A stretch of DNA of 64,000 bases from Escherichia coli (GTDB lineage Bacteria; Pseudomonadota; Gammaproteobacteria; Enterobacterales; Enterobacteriaceae). The DNA lies in assembly GCF_003790525.1 (NCBI RefSeq), contig NZ_CP033635.1; one strand, 5' to 3'. How positions within the stretch are numbered: the first letter of the stretch is position 1; the number at the start of each line of letters is the position of its first letter. Position numbers and translations under genes: made by a program. Below are positions 5,806 through 10,315 of the stretch, in pieces. Under the pieces are notes generated by a model. The model searched no databases. It worked only from the letters and a program-made list of their open reading frames with translations, and was not told the origin of the DNA.

Positions 5806-7874
<2,069 letters not shown>

Positions 7875-7876
7875 AT

Positions 7877-7907
7877 AAAACGGGAGGTGAAGGTGCCTCC
7901 CGTTTTT
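7877..7907. terminator. Bidirectional intrinsic terminator (AAAA-CGGGAGG-loop-CCTCCCG-TTTTT) shared by envZ and the minus-strand antitoxin gene
   Basis: 7 bp GC-rich stem 7881..7887 / 7896..7902 with A-run before and T-run after; antitoxin stop codon (7906..7908) lies in the T-run. Confidence 0.75.
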
Positions 7908-8202
7908 AGATTGTTTTCAATTGATTGATAATGAAAGGATTCGCTTGCAAAAGCAGGAGCAATTTTCGGGGTGCTCCGGTAGGCTGACGGCGTTTGGTTT
8001 CCCAGCTTTTGACCAGGTCATAACTTACCCCTACGGCGACAGCAAAATCTTGCTGACGTAAACCCGTTGCTTCACGGATCGCTTTTACATCGATTTCGCT
8101 AAAAGTATGGACGTGCTCTGGTTCTGGCGTTTCTTCACCCTTTTCGATGCGTACCATTTCTTCTGCGCTGGCAAGAAGATCAGCAAATAATTCATCTTTC
8201 AT
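7906..8202 (-). CDS. HigA-like antitoxin, XRE-family helix-turn-helix DNA-binding protein (98 aa)
   Basis: ATG at 8200..8202 with GGAGG Shine-Dalgarno about 10 nt upstream; C-terminal half has an HTH_XRE signature (LRQQDFAVAVGVSYDLVKSWETKRRQPTGAPRKLL); 58 bp downstream of a RelE/ParE-type toxin gene. Confidence 0.75.
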   Translation of the reverse strand: MKDELFADLLASAEEMVRIEKGEETPEPEHVHTFSEIDVKAIREATGLRQQDFAVAVGVSYDLVKSWETKRRQPTGAPRKLLLLLQANPFIINQLKTI

Positions 8203-8260
8203 CTGTTTTCAATGCCTCCGTTGACATTTCGGCCATGGTGGAATTTGTGGAGCTTCAACA

Positions 8261-8578
8261 TTAAAGCAGCTTCTCGGACAATAGTTTCAATGCCTTTCTT
8301 TGTTCTTCTGTTAAATCATCCTGTTCATTTTTAGGATAAATCAACGCCAGATAAATTCGGCCATTGCGTGTTACGTTGTAATAAATTATCCGAGTGCCAC
8401 CCCGTTTCCCCATTCCAGAACGGTTCCAGCGAATTTTTCTAAAACTGCCTGTGCCTGCGATAATGTCACCGGCAGTGGGATCTTGAATGAGTAGTTCCTG
8501 AAAAGCCCGGAACTCATCATCAGGTAGCAATAACTGGCGGCGTTTGCTAAATCCTTGTAGTTCAATAAAGGTGAACAT
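8261..8578 (-). CDS. HigB-like toxin, RelE/ParE superfamily (Gp49-like), probable ribosome-dependent mRNA endonuclease (105 aa)
   Basis: ATG at 8576..8578 with AGGA SD; motif GTGSFRKIRWNRSGMGKRGGTRIIYY resembles the conserved core of HigB-2/Gp49-like toxins (recalled Vibrio HigB: GTGGLRKIRVASKGKGKRGGSRIIYY); toxin-upstream, antitoxin-downstream order typical of hig loci. Confidence 0.72.
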   Translation of the reverse strand: MFTFIELQGFSKRRQLLLPDDEFRAFQELLIQDPTAGDIIAGTGSFRKIRWNRSGMGKRGGTRIIYYNVTRNGRIYLALIYPKNEQDDLTEEQRKALKLLSEKLL

Positions 8579-8602
8579 AATGCATCCTGCGGTCTATTGA
8601 TA

Positions 8603-8608
8603 ATTATA
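8603..8608 (-). promoter_or_regulatory. Candidate -10 hexamer TATAAT for toxin-antitoxin cassette promoter
   Basis: Perfect TATAAT on minus strand about 25 nt upstream of toxin ATG; -35 region weak; flanked by GTACAC direct repeat (possible operator). Confidence 0.35.
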
Positions 8609-8642
8609 AGTGTACCGTGTACATATTGGTAGCTAATTAGAT

Positions 8643-8673
8643 AAAAAAACCCCTTATCCGTTTGGATAAGGGG
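8643..8673 (-). terminator. Intrinsic terminator of pck (stem CCCCTTATCC / GGATAAGGGG followed by T7 on minus strand)
   Basis: 10 bp stem at 8650..8673 with A7 run at 8643..8649 (T-run on minus strand), 20 nt downstream of pck stop. Confidence 0.75.
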
Positions 8674-8692
8674 TCAATGAGATATCAGCTGA

Positions 8693-10315
8693 TTACAGCT
8701 TAGGACCTGCCGCTACCAGCGCGGCACCCGCAGGGGTGTCGGTGTATTTATCAAAGTTGTCGATAAACAGTTTCGCCAGGGTTTCGGCTTTTTCCTGCCA
8801 CTGTTCCGGGGAAGCGTAGGTGTTACGCGGATCGAGGATCTTCGTGTCTACGCCCGGCAGTTCGGTTGGGATCGCCAGGTTAAACATCGGCAGAGTGAAG
8901 GTTTCTGCGTTATCCAGCGAACCGTTGAGGATGGCGTCGATAATGGCGCGGGTATCTTTAATCGAGATACGTTTGCCAGTGCCGTTCCAGCCGGTGTTAA
9001 CCAGATACGCCTGCGCGCCTGCCGCCTGCATACGTTTCACCAGCACTTCTGCGTACTGAGTTGGGTGCAGCGACAGGAATGCCGCGCCGAAGCAGGCGGA
9101 GAAGGTTGGCGTCGGTTCGGTGATGCCGCGCTCTGTACCAGCCAGTTTGGCGGTGAAGCCAGAGAGGAAGTGGTACTGGGTTTGATCGGCAGTCAGACGA
9201 GAAACCGGCGGCAGCACGCCGAAAGCATCAGCAGTCAGGAAGATAACCTTAGTTGCGTGGCCCGCTTTGGACACCGGCTTAACGATGTTTTCAATGTGAT
9301 AGATAGGATAAGAAACGCGGGTGTTCTCGGTTTTTGAACCATCATCAAAGTCGATAGAACCATCTTCACGCACGGTGACGTTTTCCAGCAGCGCATCACG
9401 ACGGATAGCGTTGTAGATTTCAGGTTCCGCTTCTTTCGACAGCTTGATAGTTTTTGCGTAGCAGCCGCCTTCAAAGTTAAACACGCCGTCATCGTCCCAG
9501 CCGTGTTCGTCATCGCCAATCAGGCGACGTTTCGGGTCGGTGGAAAGGGTGGTTTTACCGGTGCCGGAAAGGCCGAAGAACACCGCAACATCGCCTTTCT
9601 CACCAACGTTGGCGGAGCAGTGCATAGAAGCGATACCTTTCAGCGGCAGCAGGTAGTTCATCATTGAGAACATCCCTTTCTTCATTTCGCCGCCGTACCA
9701 GGTGCCGCCAATCAGCTGCATGCGCTCGGTCAGGTTAAACGCCACGAAGTTTTCGGAGTTCAGACCCTGTTCTTTCCACTGCGGGTTAGTGCACTTCGCG
9801 CCGTTCATAACGATAAAGTCTGGTTTGAAACCTGCCAGCTCTTCATCGCTCGGGCGAATAAACATGTTTTTGACAAAATGCGCCTGCCAGGCCACTTCGG
9901 TGATGAAACGGACGGAAAGACGAGTATCCGGGTTCGCACCACAGAAAGCGTCGACAACGAACAGACGTTTGCCGGAAAGCTGTTTGGTCACCAGGCCTTT
10001 AAGATGCTGCCAGGTTTCCGGAGAGAGAGGTTTGTTGTCGTTCTTACCTTTGCCTTTGTCTGCCCACCAGAAAGTATCGCGAGTGGTATCGTCACGGACG
10101 ATATACTTATCTTTTGGTGAACGACCGGTGAAGATCCCGGTATCGACGGCAACGGCACCCAGATTAGTTAACACCCCGCGCTCATAACCTGTCAGGCTCG
10201 GATCGAGCTCTTCCTGATACAGCAGGTCGTAGCTTGGGTTGTAAACGATATCATGTACGTCACTGATACCATAAGCCTCGAGTTCTTGCGGGGTCAAACC
10301 ATTGTTAACGCGCAT
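8693..10315 (-). CDS. pck: Phosphoenolpyruvate carboxykinase (ATP)
   Basis: ORF-track 563 aa begins at a TTG; internal ATG (CAT 10313..10315) gives 540 aa [20 protein letters not shown]..., matching PckA. Confidence 0.95.

Follow-up and report, generated by a model that had tools for sequence, protein, structure and literature searches.

Among the closest described relatives of the locus analysed here is the HigB-2/HigA-2 pair of the Vibrio cholerae superintegron (PDB 5JA8, 5JA9, 5JAA and 5J9I; Pfam PF06296), which cleaves mRNA at the ribosomal A site, is induced by amino-acid starvation and stabilises plasmids (PMC11980606). PF06296 is the family holding HigB-2 and is separate from the Gp49, HigB and HigB-like families (PMC11980606). 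Alanine substitution of Arg51, Arg64, Tyr82 or Lys84 in the V. cholerae toxin reduced its activity 170- to 3000-fold, and residues 3-22 of HigA-2 suffice to neutralise it (PMC5416850). The footprinted operator of this pair, TGTACGC-N5-GCGTACA, spans the promoter (PMC11006873). A further member of the toxin family, HigB of the Yersinia ruckeri plasmid pYR4, kills Escherichia coli DH5alpha and is neutralised by its HigA, and the pair is autoregulated and stabilises the plasmid (PMC11429247). The present locus lies between envZ and pckA in a 64,000-nucleotide (nt) stretch of E. coli DNA (RefSeq assembly GCF_003790525.1, contig NZ_CP033635.1; hereafter the window), the whole of which is 100% identical to the chromosome of E. 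coli SMS-3-5.

The envZ-pckA gap was filled by two co-directional minus-strand genes, one higB-2-like and one higA-2/nadS-like. The envZ gene lies on the plus strand, converging on them, and ends at 7874, whereas the stop codon of pckA occupies 8693-8695. The genes and their spacer are as follows.

7906..8202, minus strand: higA-2/nadS antitoxin gene, 98 amino acids (aa) (WP_000650976.1), encoding an N-terminal toxin-neutralising segment and a C-terminal XRE helix-turn-helix (HTH)
8203..8260, minus strand: intercistronic spacer of 58 nt, with GGAGG 12 nt before the higA-2 ATG
8261..8578, minus strand: higB-2-like toxin gene, 105 aa (WP_000493757.1), encoding a predicted ribosome-dependent mRNA endonuclease that contains GTGSFRKIRWNRSGMGKRGGTRIIYY

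An earlier note, made from the sequence alone, had reported two minus-strand genes of these lengths and 58-bp spacing within 7906-8692, and all of this, like its other descriptive statements, was confirmed from the open reading frames and the sequence. Its proposal of a hig-type module, in which the gene of a RelE/ParE-superfamily toxin precedes that of an XRE-HTH antitoxin, was also borne out, by matches to PF06296, HigB-2, NadS, HTH and HigA-2. The pair very probably constitutes a type II toxin-antitoxin operon on the chromosome that belongs to the higBA-2 type of V. cholerae, has long been resident at the pckA-envZ junction and, in some lineages, is decaying toxin first. Within this well-characterised family the pair is an ordinary member, and it has been annotated before: RefSeq annotates both genes in this genome, with the toxin under the generic name "RelE/ParE family toxin", and Prokka-style annotations in other E. 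coli strains name the pair HigB-2 and HigA-2.

The toxin aligned without gaps to the V. cholerae HigB-2 sequence in the PDB (phmmer E=5.2e-24; residues 3-100 on 4-101; about 50% identity), from a locus with the same toxin-first order, and was 57% identical to HigB of pYR4 by tblastn. The four catalytic residues of V. cholerae HigB-2, R51, R64, Y82 and K84, correspond to R50, R63, Y81 and K83 of the E. coli toxin, and these were invariant in 27 aligned members sharing 43-99% identity. The RIIYY sliding strand is likewise common to both toxins; within its IIYY part, I65 and Y66 were invariant in the 27 sequences, and positions 64 and 67 varied conservatively. By analogy with its relatives, HigB-2 would enter the ribosomal A site and cleave translating mRNA, resulting in growth arrest.

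In the profile searches that the earlier note had proposed for both proteins, PF06296 (PF_RelE; i-Evalue 5.6e-6, 27.0 bits, residues 44-104) was the sole Pfam domain found in the toxin at E<=10, without matches to Gp49 (PF05973), ParE (PF05016), PF05015 or PF09907, and no NCBIfam family matched. A precomputed PF06296 match was present in most of the close toxin homologues. The Gp49-family label that the note had attached to the toxin, taking HigB-2 and Gp49 toxins as a single family, therefore has to be withdrawn. HigBA of Rts1, HigBA of K-12 (YgjN/YgjM) and the Gp49-family HigBA2 of Acinetobacter resemble the present pair in toxin-first order, RelE-superfamily toxin fold and HTH antitoxin, but they belong to other Pfam families (PF05015, PF09907 and PF05973), and the active sites and neutralisation modes of such toxins differ (PMC5416850, PMC5906591). 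Acinetobacter "HigBA2" was considered as a close relative and rejected, since it is a Gp49 family member.

The antitoxin matched the NCBIfam family NadS (NF041265; 75.1 bits against a cut-off of 60, residues 5-96) and Pfam HTH_31/HTH_3 at residues 39-76. Like V. cholerae HigA-2, it has a neutralising segment at the N-terminus and an XRE HTH at the C-terminus, but the two proteins are only distantly similar (E=5e-5); their alignment begins at residue 4, which falls inside the neutralising segment defined in V. cholerae. If the pair behaves as its relatives do, the disordered N-terminal segment of HigA-2 would fold onto the toxin, slide strand beta3 (RIIYY) and pull the catalytic Arg (R63) out of the active site. 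No second nadS-like locus was found in E. coli by a DNA search in distant mode.

The following regulatory features were located upstream of the toxin gene.

8585..8588, minus strand: Shine-Dalgarno sequence AGGA, 6 nt before the higB-2 ATG
8603..8608, minus strand: -10 hexamer TATAAT, perfect, 24 nt upstream of the higB-2 ATG
8611..8623, no strand assigned: candidate HigA-2/NadS operator TGTAC-N3-GTACA (sequence GTACNNNGTAC), within the promoter spacer and 2 nt upstream of the TATAAT hexamer

A TATAAT-like hexamer was found at the corresponding place in most related promoters, and CAGGA or CAGGG stood at the Shine-Dalgarno position in most of the 25 that were compared, being missing from the three most distant, marine ones. 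The proposed promoter is thus argued from its -10 box and from comparative conservation. The core of the candidate operator, GTAC-N3-GTAC at 8612-8622, lies 3 nt upstream of TATAAT and occurred only once in the 64-kb window. As at least one such site was also present in 31 of 100 shuffles of the window, chance occurrence is not rare, and it is the position of the repeat and its recurrence across species that carry the operator argument. Of the 32 related loci, 27 had the repeat in the 120 nt that precede the toxin gene, and those without it include distant Pseudomonas and Burkholderiaceae relatives. In most related loci the repeat was present twice, at a distance of about 30 bp, and the proximal copy lay between the -35 and -10 elements. 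V. cholerae HigBA-2 likewise has an inverted repeat with a TGTAC half-site overlapping its promoter, and the half-site core is common to both operators. From these comparisons we infer that HigA-2/NadS binds at 8611-8623. In the scheme known from relatives, a HigA-2 dimer would bind TGTAC-N3-GTACA via its C-terminal HTH and repress the operon; under stress, the labile antitoxin would be degraded, by which the toxin would be freed and transcription de-repressed.

Among relatives, the toxin and antitoxin genes were separated by anything between about 5 and about 100 nt, and therefore no conserved element is expected in 8203-8260. On either side, the cassette was bounded by a hairpin detected in a terminator scan.

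7877..7906, no strand assigned: hairpin common to the convergent envZ and higA-2 transcripts, a bidirectional terminator
8648..8675, minus strand: pckA intrinsic terminator, GACCCCTTATCC-AAAC-GGATAAGGGG followed by U7, which divides pckA from the co-directional cassette

The pckA hairpin gave an RNA folding energy of -20.4 kcal/mol (z = -5.9), and the hairpin at 7877-7906 folded on both strands (-19.1 kcal/mol on the plus and -17.8 kcal/mol on the minus strand). A search of 7500-9000 for known RNA families returned no Rfam family at threshold, and its three sub-threshold matches all fell on the pckA terminator hairpin. The order of the cassette is pckA terminator, promoter/operator, higB-2, higA-2 and shared envZ terminator, and the presence of a single promoter and terminator suggests that higB-2 and higA-2 are co-transcribed.

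Of 5426 complete E. coli genomes, 1328 (24.5%) carried the cassette; the copy was single and chromosomal in every case, with none on a plasmid, and no mobile-element genes were found near it in the carriers. In all the other complete E. coli genomes, envZ and pckA were about 75 bp apart. The K-12-like strain ATCC 98082 had a gene-free spacer of 75 bp, in agreement with the statement in the earlier note that the gap holds no genes in K-12. The pangenome check which the note had suggested thus gave accessory status, with the cassette absent from K-12-like strains. In its location the E. coli pair differs from V. cholerae HigBA-2, which lies in an integron cassette array and not at a core-gene junction, and from pYR4 HigBA, which is plasmid-borne and acts in post-segregational killing. 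Carriage on plasmids was considered and rejected, because the only matches above 60% identity (99% and 82%) were on records of 4.8 Mb and 568 kb which are probably chromosomal. These two records, NZ_OL790696.1 (H71, 4.8 Mb) and LR134122.1 (H72, 568 kb), are filed as plasmids in PLSDB, and their size makes a chromosomal nature probable.

The left boundary of the presence/absence polymorphism was the hairpin at 7877-7906, and the right boundary was the pckA stop codon. The shared hairpin was kept in occupied and empty E. coli alleles, and homology stopped directly past it: the occupied allele then has 786 nt (7907-8692) before the pckA stop codon and the empty allele 44 nt, and these two stretches were unrelated. 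The possibility that the empty allele holds a remnant of the cassette was rejected, as its 44 nt gave scattered short matches only. A homologous pckA-side hairpin was missing from the empty allele. A supposed 46-nt higA-2 remnant in E. coli HS-02 (locus L057, 1547-2100) was rejected as well, being a homopolymer-rich assembly artefact over the cassette. The artefact interval is annotated as a 177-aa hypothetical protein in the deposited complete genome.

The GC content of the cassette was 43%, with about 39% at third codon positions (GC3) in each gene, whereas that of the flanking genes was 53-57%. No integrase, insertion sequence (IS), transposase or tRNA gene was found within 6 kb on either side, and there were no direct or inverted repeats at the junctions, so that nothing marked the cassette as an islet brought in by a mobile element, be it an integrase, a transposase, a tRNA target or flanking repeats; the earlier note had rightly seen no integrase, IS or repeat scar. 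In a small sample of nine occupied haplotypes (window positions 7555-9434 and loci L001, L041-L045, L048 and L056), nucleotide diversity was 0.010-0.011 in the cassette versus 0.027 and 0.034 at the 3' ends of envZ and pckA, respectively. The cassette diversity, lower by about three-fold, hints that the cassette spread among lineages by homologous recombination through its flanks, and would fit a single cassette allele having spread recently.

A scan of one genome per bacterial species yielded 30 related loci, and a toxin homologue was followed by an antitoxin homologue in all 30. In three Citrobacter species, Kluyvera ascorbata and Kluyvera sichuanensis, the cassette occupied the same pckA-envZ junction. 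The pckA-side terminator hairpin (CCCCTTATCC...GGATAAGGGG) was homologous in most of the Citrobacter and Kluyvera loci, with a diverged version in Citrobacter Q6884, and all of these pckA-envZ loci had a single proximal operator copy only. Relative to the E. coli copy, their cassette coding sequences had diverged at least as far as the flanking core genes, which favours long residence over recent exchange between genera. As the site is the same in these genera and the terminator is homologous, the cassette appears to have resided at the junction for a long time in Escherichia, Citrobacter and Kluyvera, subject to patchy loss or exchange, and does not look like a fresh insertion.

The earlier note had described the cassette as a minimal islet inserted at a terminator junction. 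Its accessory nature and the lack of scars stand, but insertion is too simple an account, given the same-site copies in Citrobacter and Kluyvera and the unrelated 44 nt in the empty allele. For the same two reasons, the occupied and empty states would be better described as old alternative alleles than as the products of a clean recent insertion. The empty envZ-pckA spacers of E. coli and two other enterobacterial groups did not align with one another, and the order of presence and absence is not readable from them.

Elsewhere, the pair was not confined to this junction. In Klebsiella variicola (L003-L006, 3537-5587) it lay between homologues of yfhL and yfhH, and in many other genera neither pckA nor envZ stood beside it. 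In K-12 (L040, 3760-4924), yfhL and yfhH are 55 bp apart, and the ShoB/OhsC type I toxin locus lies on the other side of yfhL. In Escherichia albertii NBRC 107761 (L010, 1762-4600), pckA was followed by a higB-2 gene 99% identical to that of the window, by higA-2, and then by only the last ~240 bp of envZ. Past this envZ remnant there were pieces of another pckA 3' end, which was more diverged and had a terminator of its own, and unrelated genes came after them. The E. albertii pckA region seems to have received an E. coli-like segment.

The two proteins were not conserved to the same degree. Across genera (L003-L030 compared), amino-acid identity was 94-96% for the antitoxin versus 75-83% for the toxin. 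This is the reverse of usual reports for type II pairs. Both genes were under purifying selection, with a ratio of nonsynonymous to synonymous substitution rates (dN/dS) against the Citrobacter and Kluyvera copies of 0.05-0.11 for the toxin and 0.01-0.02 for the antitoxin wherever dS was estimable, synonymous sites being near saturation (proportion of synonymous differences, pS, 0.6-0.8). The toxin dN/dS against CFT073 was invalid, because an internal stop upset the protein-guided alignment, and a direct nucleotide comparison was used instead.

An intact 105-aa toxin was encoded by 8 of the 10 E. coli alleles read, with the window counted; the exceptions were CFT073 and a strain disrupted by IS3. 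In CFT073 the toxin gene contains an internal stop (D21K, E22*), and 107 genomes, Nissle 1917 among them, carried this nonsense allele, identified by the same 80 nt. Nissle 1917 and CFT073 further share a 7-bp deletion (window 8612-8618), present in 105 genomes, which removes one operator half-site and shortens the promoter spacer. The nonsense toxin and the operator deletion appear to travel together, and in the operator-deleted strains the intact antitoxin gene may be de-repressed. The toxin gene was split in four E. coli genomes, and IS3 was inserted into its 5' end in one sampled genome. A frameshifted or truncated toxin beside an intact antitoxin was also found at five loci of other species, namely L039 (K. 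sichuanensis), L038 (Phytobacter ursingii), L034 (Photorhabdus bodei), L036 and L037; only 17 toxin codons were left at the pckA-envZ site of K. sichuanensis. Judged from these alleles, the module is not uniformly functional.

Such decay, together with the far stronger conservation of the antitoxin, is what would be seen if selection acted on NadS, as an XRE-type transcription factor domesticated for some host function, and if the toxin were a passenger, dispensable or attenuated and nearing loss. We consider this unlikely. Toxin-first decay is the expected route for any toxin-antitoxin pair, since antitoxin-first loss is lethal, and is by itself no sign of a second antitoxin function; moreover, the toxin is itself under purifying selection, all its catalytic residues are invariant, and it is intact in most of the E. 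coli alleles read. The strong constraint on the antitoxin could be explained by its own two tasks alone, because the disordered region of the V. cholerae antitoxin serves both toxin and DNA binding (PMC11006873). A precedent for a solitary protein of this kind is YiaG, an orphan XRE-HTH protein kept in K-12 and 40% identical to the antitoxin over 89 residues, and an expressed orphan nadS has been reported in K-12 by PIRT-Seq (PMC12350097). YiaG-like proteins are linked to PF06296 toxins in relE-yiaG modules (PMC11980606). K-12 YiaG differs from the present antitoxin in having no adjacent toxin, and the antitoxin falls below the cut-off of the equivalog PRK10072 (65.5 versus 110 bits) and above that of NadS. 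The absence of a second GTAC-N3-GTAC site from the window also speaks against a wider regulatory function. It is improbable that NadS/HigA-2 has gained a host regulatory role beyond its own toxin, as which it would be, in the CFT073/Nissle group, a constitutively expressed orphan transcription factor.

A main role in anti-phage abortive infection, instead of stress response or addiction, is very unlikely. Both proteins match PHROG families (E=8e-34 and 8e-28), the cassette is accessory and AT-rich relative to its flanks, and a defence function has been discussed for toxins of the RelE/ParE superfamily (PMC11980606); but the neighbours are core housekeeping genes with no defence island, and an anti-phage role in the HigB-2 family has no experimental support. 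In PADLOC, the toxin had no model match at E<=0.1, and the antitoxin matched generic HTH models only. Carriage by phages was rejected, as there were only nine weak matches to phage records, at most 43% identical (all below 45%). That the toxin is a ParE-like gyrase poison and not an mRNA endonuclease, as its generic RefSeq name would allow, is scarcely credible, given the lack of a Pfam ParE match and its close alignment to HigB-2, a demonstrated ribosome-dependent RNase all of whose catalytic residues it retains.

Several points weigh against a fully active toxin-antitoxin operon of the higBA-2 type. The Pfam match of the toxin to PF06296 is modest (27 bits). Position 45 of the toxin (codon 8446) is Ser in all E. 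coli alleles read and Gly in every other genus (GTGGFRK), and position 62 (8393-8395), beside the catalytic Arg63, is Thr in SMS-3-5 alone and Ile in other E. coli; with these S45 and T62 variants, a reduced toxin activity is conceivable. The repeated loss of the toxin with the antitoxin kept shows that the toxin is dispensable. The private TATAAT promoter proposed in the earlier note was upheld as to its perfect -10 hexamer, but the -35 element is poor (best 3 of 6 by hexamer scoring), and a strict sigma-70 consensus scan called no promoter on the minus strand. As for the operator, three of the four base-contacting residues of V. cholerae HigA-2 differ in the antitoxin, and the arms are 7 bp with a 5-nt spacer in V. 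cholerae versus 5 bp with a 3-nt spacer in the E. coli candidate; operator binding is therefore an extrapolation. The literature searched contained no experiment on the E. coli chromosomal pair and nothing on this specific locus, and toxicity of the pair is inferred from its relatives.

With the higBA-2 assignment, the pair becomes one more strain-variable type II toxin-antitoxin module in the E. coli accessory genome, in a family whose structure, catalysis and regulation are known from V. cholerae. The cassette provides a clean presence/absence marker at a core-gene junction, and comparison of sequences suffices to read off the candidate operator of the family. As a natural toxin-null variant, operator-deleted in about the same number of genomes, the CFT073/Nissle 1917 allele group might serve as a control in studies of toxin-antitoxin systems or probiotic strains.

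The nonsense allele of this group consists of three clustered base changes, GATGAG to AAGTAG (window 8515-8518, higB-2 nt 61-64; CFT073 locus L001, 2610-2624). Two of the three changes improve a nearby imperfect inverted repeat (8487-8498 and 8509-8520), which suggests that the stop arose by a templated strand-switch (quasi-palindrome) mutation and not by independent point changes.

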